From assembly GCA_965205785.1 (NCBI GenBank), contig OZ242188.1:1349899-1381898 (forward strand): a DNA stretch of 32,000 nt. Direction: 5' to 3'. Position 1 is the stretch's first letter. Each line of letters begins with the position of its first letter. A program made the translations under genes and the position numbers. This DNA comes from Nitrosomonadaceae bacterium. GTDB lineage: Bacteria; Pseudomonadota; Gammaproteobacteria; Burkholderiales; Nitrosomonadaceae. A model generated the notes under the pieces. That model was not told the origin of the DNA. It saw only the letters and a list, made by a program, of their open reading frames with translations, and made no database searches. This document shows, one piece after another, positions 4,752-27,193 of this stretch.

Positions 4752-6149
4752 ATGATCCATAAATCTTTACACCGAATTTTTAGCCAAGATTCCTCTACTT
4801 TTTCTTCAGAATCTATAACTACTGAGCTACGAATTATTCCACGTAAGCAACATGGTCTCATTCGCAATAGTATAAGTTCTTGTGCAACTAAAATTACCTT
4901 AGATTTACAGAGAGCAGGATATTTTGCTTTTATAGTGGGAGGCGCAGTACGTGACTTACTGTTGGGGCTAAAGCCAAAAGATTTTGACATTGCTACAAAT
5001 GCCAAACCTGATGAAATACGTGTTCTTTTTCGTCGTTCACGCATTATTGGGCGCCGTTTTCGTTTAGTACATGTTATGTGTGGATCCGAGACTGTAGAGG
5101 TATCTACATTTCGTGGTGATTCATTTACTAATAAGAATAATGAGCTCATGCCACACCTTCAGGCTGACGAGCATGGAAGAATCTTGAGAGATAACGTATT
5201 TGGTAGTCAAGAAGAAGATGTAAAGCGCCGTGATTTTACTGTTAACGCATTATTCTATGATCCAAATAAAGAAGAAATCTGGGATTATCTAAGTGGATAC
5301 AGTGATATTAAGTCAAGGCAGTTACGTATTATTGGTATGCCACTACAGCGTTACCGTGAGGATCCGGTACGTATGTTGCGGGCAGTGCGGCTTGCAGCTA
5401 AGCTTGACATGAAAATAGATACTGCTACTGCTAAGCCCATAGGCGATCTTGCTCCATTATTGCAAAATGTACCACCATCAAGACTATTTGATGAAATTTT
5501 AAAGATATTATTATGTGGCCATGCTCAAACTTGTGTGGCAGATTTACAGACACGTGGGTTGTATCATGGTTTGTTGCCAGTATTAGATGTGGTGCTTACT
5601 GAATCGGTAGATGAGCGTTTCATTTCACTTGTATTAAAGAATACTGATAAGCGTGTATACGAGGAGAAATCTGTATCTCCTGGTTTCCTATTTGCCGCAT
5701 TAATGTGGCACGAGGTATTGGCAATATGGAATAAACGTAAGGCAGATGGAGAGAAATCTATCTCTGCTCTGTACATGGCAATAAAAGATGTGATGGCAAG
5801 TCAAGACAAGAAACTAATAATCCCACGTAGATATGATGCAATTATGCAAGAGATCTGGGTAATGCAACCACGTTTCCTTGGCAGAGCTGGACGTAAGCCA
5901 TTCCGTTTGCTGGAGCATCCACGCTTCAGGGCAGCCTATGATTTTATGTTGTTACGTTGTGAGAGTGGTGAGATAGATATGGAGTTGGGAAATTGGTGGG
6001 AAACATTTCAGCATGCTAAAGCCAGTGATCGAGAAGATATGCTATTTAGAAATGAAGCTCCAAAAAAACGAAGAAGAAGGCGAAAGAAAAATGAAACTGT
6101 GACTGAAAGTACACAAAGTATAAATTCAGTTTCAGGATCTGCAAAATAA
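4752..6149 (+). CDS. pcnB: poly(A) polymerase I
   Basis: 465 aa. Nucleotidyltransferase motif FIVGGAVRDLLLG..PKDFDIAT, RDFT(V)NALFYD and a basic C-terminal tail KKRRRRRKK. The pcnB-folK adjacency is conserved. Confidence 0.9.
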   Translation: MIHKSLHRIFSQDSSTFSSESITTELRIIPRKQHGLIRNSISSCATKITLDLQRAGYFAFIVGGAVRDLLLGLKPKDFDIATNAKPDEIRVLFRRSRIIGRRFRLVHVMCGSETVEVSTFRGDSFTNKNNELMPHLQADEHGRILRDNVFGSQEEDVKRRDFTVNALFYDPNKEEIWDYLSGYSDIKSRQLRIIGMPLQRYREDPVRMLRAVRLAAKLDMKIDTATAKPIGDLAPLLQNVPPSRLFDEILKILLCGHAQTCVADLQTRGLYHGLLPVLDVVLTESVDERFISLVLKNTDKRVYEEKSVSPGFLFAALMWHEVLAIWNKRKADGEKSISALYMAIKDVMASQDKKLIIPRRYDAIMQEIWVMQPRFLGRAGRKPFRLLEHPRFRAAYDFMLLRCESGEIDMELGNWWETFQHAKASDREDMLFRNEAPKKRRRRRKKNETVTESTQSINSVSGSAK

Positions 6150-6167: not shown

Positions 6168-6659
6168 TTGGGTCCTATTTTCCAAGTATTCATTGCTTTA
6201 GGTAGTAATTTGGAGGATCCAGTATTTCAGGTTCGGAAAGCACTTGATGAAATTGCAATACTTCCTGAAAGTAATTTGTTAGCTTGTTCCTCTCTTTATC
6301 GGAGTGCACCAATTAGGAAGTGTGATCAGCCTGATTTTATTAATGCTGTAGTACAGATTGAAACTACTCTTTCTCCACATAACTTACTCAAAGCACTTCT
6401 ACAAATTGAGCAAAATCATGGTCGTGTACGAAGGTTGCCAAATGATCCTCGTACACTGGATCTGGATATACTGATGTATGATAAATTAGAATGTAATATG
6501 CACAACCTGATTCTTCCACATCCGAGAATGCATCAACGCGCTTTCGTATTAATGCCTCTAATGGAAATTTCGAAAGATTGTTTTATTCCTGGCCGTGGTA
6601 CTGTAGCTGAATTACTGTCAGCCTGTGCTGAACAACGACTTGAGAGAGAGCAAAATTAG
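6168..6659 (+). CDS. folK: 2-amino-4-hydroxy-6-hydroxymethyldihydropteridine diphosphokinase (HPPK)
   Basis: 163 aa. IALGSNL...Y.S.P....DQPDF.NAVV...T..P..LL..L..IE...GR.R...N.PRTLDLDIL is the HPPK pattern. TTG start at 6168 is preceded by AGGTG. Confidence 0.9.
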   Translation: MGPIFQVFIALGSNLEDPVFQVRKALDEIAILPESNLLACSSLYRSAPIRKCDQPDFINAVVQIETTLSPHNLLKALLQIEQNHGRVRRLPNDPRTLDLDILMYDKLECNMHNLILPHPRMHQRAFVLMPLMEISKDCFIPGRGTVAELLSACAEQRLEREQN

Positions 6660-7300
6660 TGAAGCTGGAAAAATATCGTTATATTGTGATTGAGGGACCA
6701 ATAGGTGTAGGTAAGACCAGTCTAGCCAGACGTATTGCGGATTACCTAGGCAGCGCATTATTATTGGAAGAGCCAGCAGAAAATCCATTTCTTGAAAAAT
6801 TTTATAGTGATATATCTAGGTACGCTTTACCAACACAATTATTTTTTCTTTTTCAGCGCAATAATCAAGTACAAAGTCTGGCACAAATGGATATGTTTAC
6901 TCGAGTGATAGTAAGTGATTTTTTACTTGAGAAAGATCAATTATTTGCTAAGCTTACATTAAGTGATGCTGAGCATAATCTCTATCAGAGTATCTACAGT
7001 CATTTGCAGCCCAAGGCTATACTGCCTGACTTAGTGATTTACTTACAGGCATCGCCTAGTACGCTTATTGATAGAGTAAAGCAGCGTGGTAGCGCTTTTG
7101 AGAGAAATATTTCTGAAGATTATCTATGGCGATTATCTGAGGCCTATACACGATTCTTTTATCAATATGAAGGTGCTCCAGTCATGATTGTAAATAGCGA
7201 GAATTTAAATTTTGTTGAGAACCAGCCGGATTTTGATTTATTACTACAAAGGTTAGAACAAATGCGTGGCCCACGCGAATATTTTAACTGGGGAAGATAG
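6659..7300 (+). CDS. deoxynucleoside kinase family protein
   Basis: 213 aa. P-loop IEGPIGVGKTSLA, ENPFLEKFY and the ...DR...R.R..E....YL..L tail are typical of dAK/dCK/dGK-type kinases. The GTG start overlaps the folK stop by 1 nt. Confidence 0.8.
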   Translation: MKLEKYRYIVIEGPIGVGKTSLARRIADYLGSALLLEEPAENPFLEKFYSDISRYALPTQLFFLFQRNNQVQSLAQMDMFTRVIVSDFLLEKDQLFAKLTLSDAEHNLYQSIYSHLQPKAILPDLVIYLQASPSTLIDRVKQRGSAFERNISEDYLWRLSEAYTRFFYQYEGAPVMIVNSENLNFVENQPDFDLLLQRLEQMRGPREYFNWGR

Positions 7301-7309
7301 GACTTAAAC

Positions 7310-8101
7310 ATGCGCACTACACAAAAGACTTTACAAAAAATGTGTGATAGTGGGGAAAAGATTGCCGCACTTACATGTTATGACGCAAGTTTTGCTTCGT
7401 TATTAGAAGATTCAGGTGTTGATATTCTATTGGTGGGAGACTCATTAGGTAATGTATTACAAGGAGAGAAGACAACATTATCTGTGAAACTGGATGATAT
7501 GGTTTATCACACACGATGTGTAGCTCGAGGTTCAAGTAAGTCATTTATCATGACTGATATGCCCTTTGGTACATCTCAGGTATCGCCGGAGAATACGTTT
7601 GAAAATGCAGCTAAACTAATGTCTGCAGGTGCAAGCATGGTAAAAATTGAGGGAGGGAGTGTGATGGCTGAGACTATTAGATTCTTGTCTCATCGTGGCA
7701 TACCAGTATGTGCGCATATTGGCCTAATGCCTCAATCTATACATGTGTTAGGAGGGTATAAAGTACAAGGTAAATCTAAAAATCAAGCAAATCAACTGTT
7801 GGAGGATGCAGTTATCCTGGAAGAGGCCGGTGCAGGTATGCTACTAATGGAAGCTGTTCCAGCTACTCTAGCAAAGAAAATAACTAAGAAGCTAAATATA
7901 CCCACGATAGGTATTGGTGCAGGAGTTGATTGTGATGCACAAGTGCTGGTGTTGTATGACATACTCGGGATTTATTCTGGAAAAAAATCAAGATTCATTA
8001 AAAATTTTATGGATGATGTAGGTAATGTCAATGAAGCAGTGGAGAATTACGTTAAAGAAGTTAAATCTAAAAAATTCCCTAAGTTAGAACATGGATTCTA
8101 G
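7310..8101 (+). CDS. panB: 3-methyl-2-oxobutanoate hydroxymethyltransferase
   Basis: 263 aa. LTCYDASFA....GVD.LLVGDSLG.V.QG, KIEGG and IGIGAG..CDAQVLV are PanB motifs. Confidence 0.95.
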   Translation: MRTTQKTLQKMCDSGEKIAALTCYDASFASLLEDSGVDILLVGDSLGNVLQGEKTTLSVKLDDMVYHTRCVARGSSKSFIMTDMPFGTSQVSPENTFENAAKLMSAGASMVKIEGGSVMAETIRFLSHRGIPVCAHIGLMPQSIHVLGGYKVQGKSKNQANQLLEDAVILEEAGAGMLLMEAVPATLAKKITKKLNIPTIGIGAGVDCDAQVLVLYDILGIYSGKKSRFIKNFMDDVGNVNEAVENYVKEVKSKKFPKLEHGF

Positions 8102-23749: not shown

Positions 23750-24367
23750 TTAACGAATGAGGAGATTCATGTGAGCTTTAATTAGCTTAATTGCTCTATT
23801 TCGGAAATGATTGCCATCTGAATCTTTTACCCACATATGTAGCAAGCCAATAAAAAATAACTGTGTATCAATAGCTAATTGGGCTGGTTCATGTGAAGGG
23901 TGTAATAACCCTTGTTCCCCTGCTTTCTCATAAGTAAGACGTAATTTCTCTTCTATACCAGAACATGTTTGCAGGATTTCCTGTAAAACCACAGAAAATT
24001 CATTCACATATTCACATTTAATCATCATGATTTCGTAAATCTGTCTGGTTTCGACGCTATTACTGAGGAGCTGGATTGTTCCACATAAAAAATTTTCGAT
24101 TCGTACTAGAGGATTAATATTACTTTCAACTAGTAGTGTATCGTCCATGCGATCTATTAGAGGTAGAAATACTTGTTCACGCATAGCCTGAAATACTTCA
24201 GTCTTATTTTTGAAATGCCAGTAGATTGCTCCGCGTGTGACCCCGGCCTGTGTCGCTATATGCTCCATGGTTGTACGGCTAACCCCGCGAGCTAAAAATA
24301 CTTCACGCGCTGCGATAATGATGCTTTTTCGCGTCTATTCGGCATCTTCTTTAGTTTTTCTAGCCAT
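23750..24367 (-). pseudogene. AcrR-like TetR-family efflux repressor interrupted by an in-frame amber codon at codon 11
   Basis: Reverse-strand ATG at 24367 reads [57 protein letters not shown]..., in frame with the track ORF 23750..24268. TAG is at plus 24335-24337. E. coli AcrR begins MARKTKQEAQETRQHILD. A restart at M34 would lack helix 1 of the HTH domain. Confidence 0.8.
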
Positions 24368-24410
24368 ATTTTCAGATATTTGTTTACATACGAGGATGTT
24401 TGTATATAAC

Positions 24411-24435
24411 TACATACATACATACATACATACAT
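24411..24435. repeat. tetranucleotide microsatellite (TACA)6 plus T
   Basis: tacatacatacatacatacatacat read directly from the sequence. It lies 44 nt upstream of the acrR-like start codon, in the former divergent promoter region. Confidence 0.95.
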
Positions 24436-24447: not shown

Positions 24448-24455
24448 GTTATTTT
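24448..24455. repeat. left copy of the 8-bp target-site duplication GTTATTTT
   Basis: Identical octamer at 27186-27193, immediately outside the two inverted-repeat termini. Confidence 0.8.
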
Positions 24456-24490
24456 GGTAAGTATCCCTTCGCAACAAGTGAAAGATAATG
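24456..24490. repeat. left terminal inverted repeat (IRL)
   Basis: ggtaagtatcccttcgcaacaagtgaaagataatg, compared with the reverse complement of IRR ggtaaatatcccttgacaacaagtagagcataatg. Confidence 0.75.
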
Positions 24491-24712
24491 GATAATAATA
24501 CCAACCTTGGCAAGGTAACGCCAATCGCACTTAGACGGATGGCAAAATCAATTGCATCAAATTATGGTGATGATGGAGCAATAATAATTACGGTAGGGAA
24601 AGAAGGCGCCCGTGTAGGTGTTGAAGGTTTAACGCCTCAACAAATTCAGGATGCCCTCTGTGTTGCTATTAACTACAACTTCTATTTCTCAGAACAAGAG
24701 TCTACTTCTTAA
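24488..24712 (+). CDS. hypothetical small protein (IS cargo), 74 aa (or 57 aa from M18 at 24539)
   Basis: ORF-track ORF with a protein-like sequence (GDDGAIIITVGKEGARVGVEGLTPQQIQDALCVAINY) and no family I recognise. Its ATG lies inside IRL, within the spacer of an IRL promoter-like motif, so the start is uncertain. The 3' end overlaps the HNH gene by 11 nt. Confidence 0.45.
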   Translation: MDNNTNLGKVTPIALRRMAKSIASNYGDDGAIIITVGKEGARVGVEGLTPQQIQDALCVAINYNFYFSEQESTS

Positions 24713-24953
24713 CTTTGTCTGATTTTTCTCGGTTCTCTTCCCAGTGTAATGGTTGGAGGTTACTTGGATTATCAGAACCACCTTTAGACTCTGGATGCTT
24801 ATGGTCTATTTCCCATCCATATTCACCCGTAGTCCCATAAGATGGCTTCCTAATCTTATTGTCCTCGCCATCTTTTCACCATACATCTGGGTTTTTACCT
24901 CTAATGGGCTTAGCCTTATCCCATACTTGCTCTATTGTTTTCTTGCTTGCCAT
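24702..24953 (-). pseudogene. small HNH endonuclease gene with an in-frame TGA at codon 26
   Basis: Reverse strand reads MASKKTIEQVWDKAKPIRGKNPDVW-TGA-KDGEDNKIRKPSYGTTGEYGWEIDHKHPESKGGSDNPSNLQPLHWEENREKSDKVKK-TAG. The GWEIDH...GG.D...NLQPL....N..K.D pattern is the small HNH family signature. TGA is at plus 24876-24878 and there is no downstream Met for a restart. Confidence 0.75.
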
Positions 24954-25040
24954 GTTAAAAATACTCCATAAAACACGCTTTATTCAAACTTGACATACTA
25001 TATATATGTATGCTCAACTATAAAGCGAAGTTGAAAGAAA

Positions 25041-25107
25041 TGGAGCGGAAGGGAATTGAACCCTCGGCATGAAGTTTAGGAGACCACAGTCGTACCTAAC
25101 CCGCCCC
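25041..25107 (-). ncRNA. 67-nt tRNA-like element resembling a tmRNA tRNA-like domain; lacks an anticodon arm
   Basis: Reverse strand: GGGGCGG-GUUAGGUACGACUGUGGUCUCCUAAACUUCAUGCC-GAGGG-UUCAAUU-CCCUU-CCGCUCC-A. It has a 7-bp acceptor stem including G3:U70 and a discriminator A. The 5-bp T-stem ends in G53:C61 and carries a canonical 7-nt T-loop, UUCAAUU. The central 35 nt form only a UUAGG/CCUAA hairpin. GGUACGAC resembles the GGnUUCGAC motif at the tmRNA 5' end. No CCA is encoded. Confidence 0.45.
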
Positions 25108-25128
25108 AATGTTTATTAGTGCCTCACC

Positions 25129-25182
25129 ACCCGTATTAAGTTTGTCCGACAAGACTGAGACTTAATACGGGTTTTTCTATTT
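25129..25182 (+). terminator. plus-sense intrinsic terminator-like hairpin
   Basis: 13-bp perfect stem acccgtattaagt (25129-25141) with acttaatacgggt (25160-25172) and an 18-nt loop, followed by TTTTTCTATTT on the plus strand. On the minus strand it sits 21 nt 5' of the tRNA-like element with no U-tract after it. Confidence 0.55.
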
Positions 25183-25231
25183 GGGTCGCGAGCAACGAAG
25201 GCATAGTACGCTCGGCCTCTGCTTTAGAGCC

Positions 25232-25780
25232 TCATAATTCACCTTCCTCTTGTGATTGGTTAGAATCTTCATCGTCATTCTCTGTGCTATCAGTTTGACT
25301 AATGGGAGTGGTTGTGTAAACGCTTCTTTTGTTTGGTTCCTTGTAAATTTGCTCATTCTGAACCATGCGATATAGCTTAGCCGTTAGTAACGGACGCTTT
25401 ACAATTTCCTTGGTTTTATAATAAATTCCTATCAAAATTCTATCTAAAGAAAGCTTGCCACCAGCAGCGTCTATCAACTCGGTTATTAAAATTTCTTGTG
25501 GGTCTTTATTTTTGATACTTAACTGTTCAATTACTTCCTTTGGTAAGCCAGCTAGTTCTTTTTGAAACAATATTCCGGCTGGATCAACATCATGTGACGG
25601 CAGATTTTTGTCTCTGTCTATCCAGGTTTTTTCAAGGAATGTGAGTAGGGAGCGAAAGTGTTCTGCACTTTCACAATGGAAATTTAATTTTTTCGGATTA
25701 CTACGTGTAGCGGTTGCTCTACGGTCTTGATACTCTATTTGGGACTTTACAAAGTCGATGTGATCTGCTATATTGTTCAT
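25232..25780 (-). CDS. hypothetical protein (IS cargo), 182 aa, possible C-terminal winged-helix region and acidic tail
   Basis: The only long ORF in this interval. AAGAGGA lies 9 nt upstream of the ATG. The segment GGKLSLDRILIGIYYKTKEIVKRPLLTAKLYRMVQNEQIYKEPNKRSVYT resembles a winged-helix fold by pattern only. The tail is TENDDEDSNQSQEEGEL. No family recognised. Confidence 0.7.
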   Translation of the reverse strand: MNNIADHIDFVKSQIEYQDRRATATRSNPKKLNFHCESAEHFRSLLTFLEKTWIDRDKNLPSHDVDPAGILFQKELAGLPKEVIEQLSIKNKDPQEILITELIDAAGGKLSLDRILIGIYYKTKEIVKRPLLTAKLYRMVQNEQIYKEPNKRSVYTTTPISQTDSTENDDEDSNQSQEEGEL

Positions 25781-25869
25781 TGCTAACTGTCCTCTTTTCT
25801 GTCGATGGTTTAAGCTCTAAACTTGGTTTCCCTCAATAGAGGGGTAAAAACCCCAAGATTTGATTCAGA

Positions 25870-25898
25870 AAGCCGAGGTCTAACCACCTCGGCTTTTT
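25870..25898 (+). terminator. plus-sense intrinsic terminator-like hairpin in the leader region of the 182-aa gene
   Basis: AAGCCGAGGT (25870-25879) pairs with ACCTCGGCTT (25886-25895) around a 6-nt loop, and a TTTTT run follows on the plus strand. On the minus strand only CUUUCU follows. Confidence 0.5.
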
Positions 25899-26078
25899 CA
25901 CGTTCTTCCATATTAACATAAGATGCTGAAAATAGCAACGCTATTCCACAATAAACATGATAAGTTACGGATGCTTTAGCCGTGAGTTAACCCCATAAAT
26001 AAACGTGAGAAAATTATACTATATATTTCAATAAGATATAATTTCTTAAAATAGTGTTGTTAAATTCATGAGGAAATA

Positions 26079-26243
26079 ATGGCTATAAAAACGACAAACA
26101 AACAGACTAAATATTCTATATCATTATCACCAAAGGATAAAGAAAGACATAGGGATAACAAACGCGTTGAGACAACCAGCGGTAATAGAGGCCGCTTTAA
26201 TCGTCTTCTTGATGATGCCGTTCTAGGTGTTAAGAAGAAATAG
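26079..26243 (+). CDS. hypothetical small basic protein (IS cargo), 54 aa
   Basis: Below the ORF-track cutoff. ATG at 26079 with GAGGA 5 nt upstream. Translation MAIKTTNKQTKYSISLSPKDKERHRDNKRVETTSGNRGRFNRLLDDAVLGVKKK. The 3' end overlaps the transposase 3' end by 14 nt. Coding status unproven. Confidence 0.4.
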   Translation: MAIKTTNKQTKYSISLSPKDKERHRDNKRVETTSGNRGRFNRLLDDAVLGVKKK

Positions 26244-27123
26244 TAGGTTTGCTGATCTGTGCTAGCATCCTATGAAACATACCAGCTGGTGCTTCACGGT
26301 TGTTATATCTGAATGCAAACTCATTTACATATTTCTGTAAATGCTTACGTGATACTGAGGCATGGGTACTTCGGATACCGCGTTTTAGGTGTGACCAAAA
26401 ACCTTCAATTGTATTTGTGTAGTAGATACCGTTTACCCACTCATCAATATTGTGATTAACCTTACCATGGGTATATCCCATATTTTTTAGTGATGTATAG
26501 GAACGGTGTGTATCAGTTGAAATTGTAGTTCCGGCTTCGATATTATTTTGTACGATTGGTAGTAATGTAGCCCTTTTCTCATTGGGTACAACCTTACCTC
26601 GAAGCGATCCATTACGTTGCACCATTCCAAACACTGTACTCTTATTTTTGAGATATTCTCCTTTACCTTGCTTTTTAACTTTTACCTTGCCACCAATATA
26701 GGTTTCGTCCATTTCAACATGACCGGACAAAGAGCTAGGGTTGTTAGCTTTATCCCTTGCAGCCATGAGTTCACGCAATTGGTGTCCGATGCGCCACGCA
26801 CATTTATAGGTTACTCCTAGCTGACGTTGTAGTTCCTTGGCTGATACACCATTACGGGTTGCGGTCATAAGATACATCGCATAAAACCAATCTGTTAATG
26901 GTGTACAGGATTTCTCAAAAACTGTTCCCGAGCAAGGGTAAATATGACAACCTTCCTGACAGGCAAAAGCACGCCGACCTTCTATCCGAGTTAACTTACC
27001 AACTACACCACAGCTCGGGCATGAATCAATGTTACCATAACGCCTTTGAAGGACAGCTTGTAGGCACGTTTCATCATCAGGGTATTGGGCTTGAAACTGT
27101 TTACGGGTATATTTTTCGGTCAT
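26230..27123 (-). CDS. IS1595-family (ISXO2-like) DDE transposase with an N-terminal zinc ribbon
   Basis: Zinc-ribbon CPSCG...C..GC, then ...TPLTDWFYAMYLM...GVSAKELQRQLGVTYKCAWRIGHQLRELM...VEMDETYIGGK...TDTHRSY...GYTHGKVNH......TNTIEGFWSHLKRGI..THASVS.KHLQKYVNEFAFRYNNR. Start moved to the ATG at 27123 (GGAGA 7 nt upstream), because the track start at 27153 lies inside the promoter spacer. Confidence 0.9.
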   Translation of the reverse strand: MTEKYTRKQFQAQYPDDETCLQAVLQRRYGNIDSCPSCGVVGKLTRIEGRRAFACQEGCHIYPCSGTVFEKSCTPLTDWFYAMYLMTATRNGVSAKELQRQLGVTYKCAWRIGHQLRELMAARDKANNPSSLSGHVEMDETYIGGKVKVKKQGKGEYLKNKSTVFGMVQRNGSLRGKVVPNEKRATLLPIVQNNIEAGTTISTDTHRSYTSLKNMGYTHGKVNHNIDEWVNGIYYTNTIEGFWSHLKRGIRSTHASVSRKHLQKYVNEFAFRYNNREAPAGMFHRMLAQISKPTISS

Positions 27124-27144
27124 ATTTGTATCTCCAATGACTAA

Positions 27145-27173
27145 ACTATACATTATGCTCTACTTGTTGTCAA
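27145..27173 (-). promoter_or_regulatory. inward-facing near-consensus sigma70 promoter inside IRR (transposase promoter)
   Basis: Reverse strand TTGACA (plus 27168-27173), a 17-nt spacer, then TATAGT (plus 27145-27150), followed by GGAGA and the ATG at 27123. Confidence 0.5.
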
Positions 27174-27185
27174 GGGATATTTACC
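27151..27185. repeat. right terminal inverted repeat (IRR)
   Basis: cattatgctctacttgttgtcaagggatatttacc. Its reverse complement matches IRL at 28/35. Confidence 0.75.
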
Positions 27186-27193
27186 GTTATTTT
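27186..27193. repeat. right copy of the 8-bp target-site duplication GTTATTTT
   Basis: Exact copy of 24448-24455, directly abutting IRR. Confidence 0.8.

Follow-up and report, generated by a model that had tools for sequence, protein, structure and literature searches.

Insertion sequences (ISs) are commonly thought to encode little besides their transposase. The tRNA genes borne by phages and genomic islands serve rare codons, the phage tRNAs being canonical cloverleaves with cognate identity, and Ty1 frameshifting is controlled by the host tRNA-Arg(CCU). The closest published precedent found for the RNA described below is the group of allo-tRNAs and other irregular metagenomic tRNAs, which often lie near toxin-antitoxin or transposon genes but lack any defined transposase link; in the allo-tRNAs, the acceptor/T stems measure 8/4 or 9/3, a D-arm is present, and the variable arm is long, and some members of the group combine G3:U70 with non-alanine anticodons and insert alanine in E. 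coli (Mukai et al. 2017, PMC5389517). In this work, we have analyzed a window of 32,000 nucleotides (the whole stretch of DNA under study: Nitrosomonadaceae bacterium, assembly GCA_965205785.1, contig OZ242188.1, positions 1,349,899 to 1,381,898), in which a model-made first-pass annotation had picked out a tRNA-like minihelix. This 67-base element lies inside an IS1595-family transposon and is a conserved tRNA-like RNA gene that is missing the D-arm alone.

A conserved tRNA-like RNA missing its D-arm

Read along the minus strand from 25107 to 25041, the element is GGGGCGG-GUUAGGUACGACUGUGGUCUCCUAAACUUCAUGCC-GAGGG-UUCAAUU-CCCUU-CCGCUCC-A. The 7-bp acceptor GGGGCGG/CCGCUCC with its G3:U70 pair, the unpaired A73, the T-arm GAGGG-UUCAAUU-CCCUU, and the 35 nt that separate the acceptor 5' strand from the T-stem are all exactly where the first-pass annotation had placed them. 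The 3'-terminal CCA is not encoded, A73 being followed directly by UUUCUU in the window copy.

Homologues were gathered by pattern scans, nhmmer, and a covariance model, which together yielded at least ~20 distinct copies. Across 19 aligned sequences, 90% of the cells of the tRNA-like domain are paired and 14 of its 20 base pairs undergo compensatory (double) changes, values that were reached by none of 500 shuffles; slid controls fall to 48-60%. The acceptor stem is 98.5% paired, with covariation at pairs 4-7, and the T-stem 98.9%, with covariation at both outer pairs. The rough estimate that such a structure exceeds chance is thus borne out by its recurrence in ~20 independent loci, and the covariation check proposed for homologous copies finds compensatory changes in both the acceptor and the T stems.

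The D-arm is absent from all family members and is replaced by an 8-13-nt connector, GUU(U)GGUA, giving an acceptor/T configuration of 7/5. This part of the earlier description stands; its other half, that no anticodon arm can be drawn, does not, because a central arm with a 7-nt loop covaries. Its loop-closing pair (27:35) is found in four standard types (UA, CG, AU, and GC), pairs 27:35 and 26:36 covary, and so does its three-pair outer helix. The hairpin drawn previously in the same interval (UUAGG/CCUAA, inner GAC/GUC) is indeed the minimum-free-energy fold of the window copy, a fold that is unexceptional against shuffles (z = -1.5), but relatives preserve it poorly, pairing amounting to 74% and 63% with hardly any compensatory change. 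The loops seen in the clade are CUCCUAA, UUCCUAG, and UUCCUAC, all of which present CCU between U33 and a purine at position 37, or CUUCUAA, which presents UCU.

Standard detectors pass over this RNA. ARAGORN at default settings reports no tRNA or tmRNA (transfer-messenger RNA) in the whole window, so that this check, as proposed, detected nothing in the element. In its D-armless (metazoan mitochondrial) mode, the same program returns the window copy as a 69-nt D-loop tRNA with anticodon CCU, and assigns CCU or UCU to every clade member. No family reaches its gathering score in an Rfam scan. The tmRNA model RF00023, toward which the first-pass annotation had pointed, is the best permissive match, yet at 25 bits it falls short of the gathering score of 47 (E=4e-8 in an 801-nt search), and the alignment covers the two ends only, passing over 328 model positions; next comes mascRNA-menRNA RF01684 (24.6 bits, gathering score 42.5). 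BLAST searches with the RNA against plasmid and phage collections gave no match.

The acceptor end has a distinctive pattern of constraint. G1, G2, G3:U70, and A73 are invariant in all copies while acceptor pairs 4-7 change, the 5' strands seen being GGGGCGG, GGGGCGC, GGGGUGU, GGGGUGC, GGGGGAC, and GGGCUAU. The pattern scan of genome collections was loose, also catching genuine tRNAs and fragments of class II tRNAs, and it forced G3:U70; the conservation argument for this pair therefore uses the transposase-ascertained loci alone. Invariant G3:U70/A73 recurs in seven loci reached through the transposase only, and since several copies with the invariant end were found in this way, and not through the RNA pattern, it is no effect of ascertainment. 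An acceptor/T helix with G3:U70 reportedly suffices for alanyl-tRNA synthetase (AlaRS), as described by Hou and Schimmel and by Francklyn and Schimmel. The earlier reading of an alanine-type end thus extends to the transposase-found loci, and the pattern suggests that this end is under selection; the RNA is a predicted AlaRS substrate.

The domain does not stand alone, as had been supposed. Comparison of the copies indicates that it forms the 3' part of a longer conserved RNA, ~200 nt in length, in which it is preceded by a Shine-Dalgarno sequence with a mini-open reading frame (mini-ORF), and by a pseudoknot and hairpin. The position that had been noted for it, downstream of a 182-aa ORF, is correct, the stop of this ORF overlapping the start of the leader mini-ORF, and metagenome contigs with homologues of the 182-aa ORF carry the ~200 nt 3' of it, minihelix included.

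Codon 2 of the mini-ORF is AGG or AGA in all sequences of our alignment A3 and in loci L176, L181, L182, and L185. The start is AUG (GUG in one copy), and an early stop, for which UAA, UGA, and UAG are all used, mostly follows after one to three further codons; in L140 and L155, the frame runs on without one. AGA codons in the mini-ORF and the UCU loop occur together in L132 and L151. In the window copy, the mini-ORF stop lies 3 nt upstream of helix H2, whose loop is linked by the pseudoknot to the segment just 5' of the minihelix. In 13 sequences, the pseudoknot helix is 94.9% paired and changes on both sides in 5 of its 6 pairs, as exemplified by GCCACC/GGUGUGGC, UGCCUU/GAGGCA, and GAAUCGCC/GGCGAUUC. 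The stem of hairpin H3 varies in sequence, keeps its complementarity in each family member, and has covarying base pairs; support for it comes from per-sequence inspection and RNAalifold, the MAFFT alignment being out of register at H3. A scan of viral contigs anchored on the H3 loop motif gave no match.

Invariant AGG codons and candidate functions of the RNA

The RNA had been described as carried by an IS, and it is indeed enclosed by the inverted repeats and 8-bp target duplication of an IS1595-family transposon (24456-27185; 2,730 bp, with inverted repeats of ~24-28 bp). When 80 loci on viral contigs were picked by transposase similarity alone, the RNA was present in 4/4 with at least 63% transposase identity and in 0/76 with 52% or less, as judged by the covariance model, a relaxed structural scan giving chance-level matches only. 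All of the complete and near-complete copies that we examined have the transposase, the tRNA-like domain, and a small ORF on the opposite strand in common, whereas the cargo between and after these core parts differs between copies; the shortest element, L168 (2.07 kb), has the RNA without upstream cargo. By this comparison, the RNA is a core part of the transposon and not incidental cargo, and its compensatory conservation in transposons of different hosts and insertion sites implies that it travels with the transposon.

The codons of the transposase provide the second line of evidence. We compared 12 transposases of the RNA-bearing clade, which are 63-93% identical. Among 111 columns with an invariant, degenerately coded residue, a single codon is kept in 3, and these include AGG at positions 27 and 123; invariant arginine columns encoded by CGN vary synonymously in 11 of 11 cases. 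Relatives without the RNA have variable non-arginine residues at both positions, often alanine, with one exception (L240, AGG at position 27); at position 123 they have Ala (GCC/GCA in the closest outgroups), Gly, Asp, Ser, and others. The number of AGG codons per transposase is 0-2 in relatives of similar G+C content without the RNA, as against 4 in the RNA-bearing viral loci, and 3-6 across all 12 members of the clade. In host genes of the window, AGG is the rarest arginine codon (6/253 arginine codons), while it accounts for 4/21 in the transposase. The pattern indicates codon-level selection for AGG inside the transposase gene, which needs explaining under any reading.

An AGG-reading loop, fixed AGG codons in the transposase, AGG or AGA as codon 2 of the mini-ORF, and a selected acceptor end together suggest an RNA that acts on AGG codons in the manner of a tRNA. 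We consider the chances about even that it is a transposon-encoded, AGG-reading adaptor of the tRNA type that is coupled to its own transposase. The tRNA-like RNA would be transcribed as the 3' end of the ~200-nt RNA, either from a promoter of its own or by co-transcription with the upstream cargo. By established tRNA biology, cleavage by RNase P in front of G1, trimming of the U-rich trailer, and addition of CCA would then yield a mature RNA of ~70 nt. This RNA would serve as an adaptor for AGG on the ribosome. With AGG fixed at two positions of the transposase, the synthesis of this protein, or the identity of residues 27 and 123, would come to depend on the transposon's own RNA. The AGG mini-ORF and the pseudoknot may form a translation-sensitive sensor that tunes RNA maturation to the AGG-decoding capacity of the cell: as the mini-ORF stop lies a few nucleotides 5' of H2, a terminating ribosome would be expected to melt H2, whereas a ribosome stalled at AGG would not.

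Several observations weigh against such an adaptor. The alanine identity of the acceptor conflicts with an arginine anticodon, and we know of no precedent for a D-arm-less tRNA in bacterial translation. A mismatch in the central stem, at 25:37, is conserved across the family, and in the window copy the outer helix of the same arm contains an A.C mismatch. Not all AGG codons of the transposase behave like those at 27 and 123, which never vary: AGG alternates with CGG/CGT at position 285, where arginine is conserved in the wider family, and with AAG/CGA at position 184, so that 184 and 285 behave as Arg/Lys. These exchanges fit ordinary arginine decoding, and a host tRNA may therefore read these codons. 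Loop and mini-ORF do not always agree, since L068 combines an AGA mini-ORF with a CCU loop, and in L183 a UCU loop is accompanied by AGG codons and by a mini-ORF for Met-Ala-Ala. The leader domain is missing from L087b and L186, implying that the sensor part is not universal. Finally, no matching conserved codon was seen in other IS1595 clades with similar RNAs and other loops; where distant clades have UCC-type loops, a search for conserved GGA codons gave none.

The conflict between acceptor and anticodon would be turned to account if the alanine-charged RNA reads AGG and transposase codons 27 and 123 are translated wholly or partly as alanine, with the AGG-containing leader mini-ORF tuning production of the RNA. 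Insertion of alanine would make AGG27 and AGG123 non-synonymous with CGN and would thereby explain their invariance; it would also account for the non-arginine residues, with alanine among the more frequent, at these positions in relatives without the RNA. We advance this version tentatively and consider it unlikely. If true, it would amount to a natural, self-contained sense-codon reassignment limited to one mobile element.

Three further explanations each cover some of the features, and none of them covers the fixed AGG codons. The fold may be a cis-acting module for processing, termination, or stability, whose sole task would be to bring in RNase P and 3' trimming so that the transposon's mRNAs receive a defined and protected 3' end, as with mascRNA at the MALAT1 3' end or tRNA punctuation; the small RNA set free would have no function of its own. 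In favour of it, the element closes the cargo transcript, with a structured region and an A-rich stretch immediately 5' of it and a U-run after the acceptor stem, many related elements elsewhere come after an ORF and a GC-rich hairpin, and the 24.6-bit mascRNA match ranks second in Rfam. Such a module, which we deem unlikely, leaves the invariant G3:U70 and A73, the conserved CCU/UCU loop, and the invariant AGG codons unexplained; moreover, L168, L084, and L010 have no upstream cargo ORF to process, and in L183 and L186 the RNA is convergent with the transposase.

A base-pairing regulator, in which the loop sequence UCUCCU mimics an anti-Shine-Dalgarno sequence and pairs with the leader AGGAGA or with the ribosome-binding site of the transposase to repress translation, would use the tRNA-like scaffold for stability only. 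The best case for it is a two-sided change, AGAAGA in the leader with UCUUCU in the loop of L132 and L151 as against AGGAGA with UCUCCU elsewhere, to which may be added UUAGGAG upstream of the L068 mini-ORF, fully complementary to CUCCUAA, and GGAGA within transposase ribosome-binding sites. Complementarity between Shine-Dalgarno and anti-Shine-Dalgarno sequences is generic, however, and the leaders of the window copy, L001, L181, and L182 (AUG AGG CUC/UUC) offer at most three complementary bases; with fixed AGG27/AGG123 and the alanine-type acceptor end also unaccounted for, we hold this mechanism to be decidedly unlikely.

Mimicry of the tRNA-like domain of tmRNA, by an alanine-charged, SmpB-binding decoy or a mini rescue RNA that disturbs or replaces trans-translation, is in our view highly improbable. 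It would account for tmRNA being the best Rfam match, over both ends, and for a GGGGC acceptor with G3:U70, A73, and no D-stem, as in the tRNA-like domain of tmRNA. The kinship proposed by the first-pass annotation goes no further than these tRNA-like ends: at 25 bits the match stays below the gathering score of 47, ARAGORN sees no tmRNA, no tag reading frame lies between the halves, the covarying anticodon-type arm is absent from tmRNA, and the AGG codon pattern speaks for an action that is codon-dependent and not codon-independent.

A decayed remnant carried by chance, whether it came by deletion from a tRNA-Arg(CCU) gene or from host ssrA (the tmRNA without its middle that had been considered earlier), or was once an integrase att site, is scarcely credible, for although there are pseudogenes in the neighbourhood and the window loop matches the anticodon loop of E. 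coli tRNA-Arg(CCU), which we take to be CUCCUAA, the structure persists with compensatory changes in >15 transposon copies that occupy different insertion sites and hosts, the absence of the D-arm is itself conserved, G3:U70 and A73 are invariant, and the upstream RNA domains co-evolve with the tRNA-like domain.

The transposon, its cargo, and related loci

The features of the transposon are collected in Table 1. Its right repeat was revealed by comparison with sister loci, as a third block of homology ~520 nt beyond the RNA. Terminal repeats and 8-bp duplications also delimit L001, L176, L181, and L168, at unrelated sites (CCTTAAGG, AAAAGGTT, AAACCGTT, and AACGAATT). In the window, the transposon has gone into the short stretch that separates a tetR-like gene from a divergently oriented efflux-pump operon; suf genes are also present.

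Table 1. Positions of the RNA, transposase, and transposon features in the window
Feature	Position	Strand	Remarks
D-arm-less tRNA-like domain	25041-25107	minus	7-bp acceptor with G3:U70, D-replacement loop GUUAGGUA, central arm, T-arm, A73
Anticodon-type loop CUCCUAA, 7 nt	25076-25082	minus	U33, anticodon CCU, A37; ARAGORN mitochondrial mode
U-rich 3' trailer after discriminator base	25036-25040	minus	Between-locus homology of the RNA block stops here
Pseudoknot 3' strand GAGGCA	25120-25125	minus	Pairs with 25196-25203
Hairpin H3 (CCCGUAUUAAGU...ACUUAAUACGGG)	25130-25171	minus	Conserved loop GUCUUGNCGGACAAAC; preceded by A-rich tract 25172-25183
Helix H2 (GGCCGAGC...GCUCGCGACC)	25184-25217	minus	Loop holds 5' pseudoknot strand 25196-25203; manual comparison, 13 sequences
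Leader mini-ORF AUG AGG CUC UAA	25224-25235	minus	AUG overlaps UGA stop of 182-aa ORF
Purine-rich Shine-Dalgarno-like tract	25242-25249	minus	5' of leader mini-ORF
Invariant AGG codon 27 of transposase	27043-27045	minus	AGG 12/12; flanking codons vary
Invariant AGG codon 123 of transposase	26755-26757	minus	AGG 12/12; flanking codons vary
IS1595-family transposase, 297 aa from MTEKY	26230-27123	minus	Zn_ribbon_IS1595 + DDE_Tnp_IS1595
54-aa ORF convergent with transposase	26079-26243	+	C-terminal motif LLDDAVLGVKKK; in 5/5 complete elements compared
182-aa passenger ORF	25232-25780	minus	No Pfam or NCBIfam match
Small HNH endonuclease gene	24702-24953	minus	In-frame TGA at codon 26; pseudogene or passenger; Pfam HNH E=1e-7 (stop replaced)
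74-aa inward-facing passenger ORF, right end	24488-24712	+	No family match
Left terminal inverted repeat (IRL) GGTAAATATCCCTTGACAACAAGT...	27158-27185	minus	Holds transposase promoter-like site TTGACA-17-TATAGT
Right terminal inverted repeat (IRR) GGTAAGTATCCCTTCGCAACAAGT...	24456-24483	+	21/24 identical to left repeat, inverted
Inward promoter-like site TTCGCA-17-GATAAT in right repeat	24468-24496	+	Promoter scan
Target-site duplication, left copy	27186-27193	.	GTTATTTT on + strand
Target-site duplication, right copy GTTATTTT	24448-24455	.	Identical 8 bp flank both inverted repeats

The transposase matches DDE_Tnp_IS1595 of Pfam with E=7e-43 and the N-terminal zinc ribbon with 1.5e-9, and has thousands of metagenomic homologues. 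The small opposite-strand ORF (48-75 aa, lysine-rich) slightly overlaps the 3' end of the transposase gene and has no protein-family match; its C-terminal F..LLDDAVLGxKKK is kept in the window, L001, L168, L176, L181, and L010, and the ORF is, on the comparison of complete copies, a third core component of the transposon.

The cargo is more changeable. The 182-aa ORF has 17 homologues (41-66% identity), and reading of their alignment suggests a winged-helix-like C-terminal half; in sister elements, it is swapped for DUF5343 or other genes. Further cargo consists of a HigBA-like pair, a 273-aa ORF, and small HNH or GIY-YIG-like ORFs. The 298-aa counterpart of the 273-aa ORF in L010 looks proteasome/Ntn-hydrolase-like by eye. 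GIY-YIG-like small ORFs lie 3' of the RNA in L001 (6661-7074), L084 (~7800-8000), and L168 (element positions 1548-1874); the motif was judged from sequence, and the ORFs have no Pfam or NCBIfam match. With these three and the HNH gene of the window, a nuclease-like ORF apparently recurs directly downstream of the RNA.

On the + strand of the window, H3 is followed by UUUUUCUAUUU (25127-25183) and reads as an intrinsic terminator that faces the promoter-like site of the right repeat; the same opposite-strand stem and U run also appeared in the permissive Rfam search, as a spurious MtlS alignment. Transcripts from the right end would thus cross the HNH gene and the tRNA-like domain in antisense direction and terminate at this point. 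The HNH ORF has its in-frame TGA at 24876-24878, and a tetR/acrR-like regulator at 23750-24367 (minus strand) has an in-frame TAG at codon 11 (24335-24337), which together suggest a genome that is accumulating pseudogenes. A short TACA/ATGT-type microsatellite, TACATACATACATACA, lies at 24403-24434, between the tetR-like start and the target duplication.

Beyond the clade, RNA-first scans, in which G3:U70 was forced, found elements of 64-73 nt with this pair adjoining more distant IS1595-type transposases (27-47% identity), with loops of UCU, UCC-type, and UGC/UGG. An alphaproteobacterial group of metagenome-assembled genomes (MAGs; L104, L027, L082, and L103, e.g., L104:6191-6263) has a 70-73-nt G3:U70 element with a 3-bp mini D-arm, located 320-520 nt upstream of a distant IS1595-type transposase, and the loop triplet varies on a similar scaffold (UGC, UGG, and others). 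Similar RNAs are found in L100, L078, and L111, with no transposase detected within the fetched stretch.

Within the family, L183:1356-1423 (minus strand) carries an RNA convergent with the transposase, with a UCU loop, no H2, and a mini-ORF AUG GCU GCC UGA that gives Met-Ala-Ala in place of Met-Arg-Arg. In L087, two tRNA-like domains (5492-5560 and 6639-6705) flank one transposase: the downstream domain is a CCU copy with acceptor GGGCUAU/AUGGUCC, and the upstream domain differs in its loop, has CCA encoded, and sits where the left inverted repeat belongs. This arrangement may go back to nested or recombined insertion. Outside the transposon family, and not related to it, is a highly conserved 71-nt RNA (GGGGCGUGUUGUAAUUGGCAGCC...UUUACCAA...CGCCUCCACCA) of Nanopelagicales/Planktophila MAGs (L012, L025, L026, L043, and at least about 30 more), which has G3:U70-like ends and an acceptor that pairs only with a bulge, and which ARAGORN calls tRNA-Gly(ACC).

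Relation to known systems

Here, an entire IS1595 clade is equipped with a conserved structured RNA to which the usual tRNA and Rfam tools are blind. In the searchable literature on IS1595 elements with tRNA, tRNA-like RNAs, or passenger genes, we found no comparable description, and the system of transposon, RNA, and codons looks undescribed. Should AGG prove to be decoded by the RNA, this would be the first D-arm-less tRNA from bacteria and the first case of a transposon that controls or recodes its transposase via a private adaptor, which would open a new route of transposition control. If it is merely a processing or regulatory RNA, it would still represent a new RNA family, with a leader mini-ORF, a pseudoknot, and a tRNA-like domain. 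As a natural 67-nt scaffold that bears an anticodon and is predicted to accept alanine, it may become a tool for genetic-code engineering. The following comparisons place the RNA among described systems:

(i) With the canonical cloverleaf tRNA, the element shares a 7-bp acceptor, a 5-bp T-stem, the T-loop UUCRANU, a discriminator base, and a 7-nt anticodon loop with U33 and a purine at 37. It differs in having no D-arm (stem of 3-4 bp and loop).

(ii) The tRNA-like domain of tmRNA (RF00023) is alike in its GGGGC start, G3:U70, A73, canonical T-arm, and lack of a D-stem, and both are AlaRS substrates, by prediction in the case of the element. The element, however, is an uninterrupted 67 nt whose halves are not separated by a tag ORF or pseudoknots, does not encode CCA, and is encoded by a transposon; it has a covarying anticodon-type arm, and its structured domain and mini-ORF lie upstream, not inside.

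(iii) Mitochondrial tRNAs that lack the D-arm (metazoan mt-tRNA-Ser, AGN) have the same order of acceptor, D-replacement loop, anticodon arm, and T-arm, and read the AGR/AGN box, as the element is proposed to do; only the mitochondrial mode of ARAGORN detects the element. The latter is bacterial-chromosomal and transposon-borne, with a full canonical T-loop, an alanine-type acceptor, and a precursor that includes the leader mini-ORF and pseudoknot.

(iv) In mascRNA/MALAT1 and the tRNA-like structures of plant viruses, a tRNA-like fold likewise ends an RNA and is preceded by a structured or A-rich region, and all of them are, like the element, predicted substrates of RNase P or the CCA-adding enzyme. 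Those systems are eukaryotic or viral and have no link to codons.

(v) The IS110 bridge RNA and the IS200/IS605 omega RNA are also conserved structured RNAs at a fixed site of an IS that co-evolve with a transposase clade. Here, there is no sign of guide segments for the element ends or target; the RNA instead has a tRNA-like fold and a codon link.

(vi) With phage and island tRNAs and Ty1, mobile-element expression is tied to the decoding of the rare arginine codons AGG/AGA, as is proposed for this transposon. What sets the present case apart is a bacterial DNA transposon that encodes its own minimal putative adaptor, with a non-cognate alanine acceptor.

(vii) The allo-tRNAs differ in stem configuration, the element being 7/5 without a D-arm, and in that the RNA is here a fixed part of a transposon, matched by fixed codons in the transposase of that same transposon.

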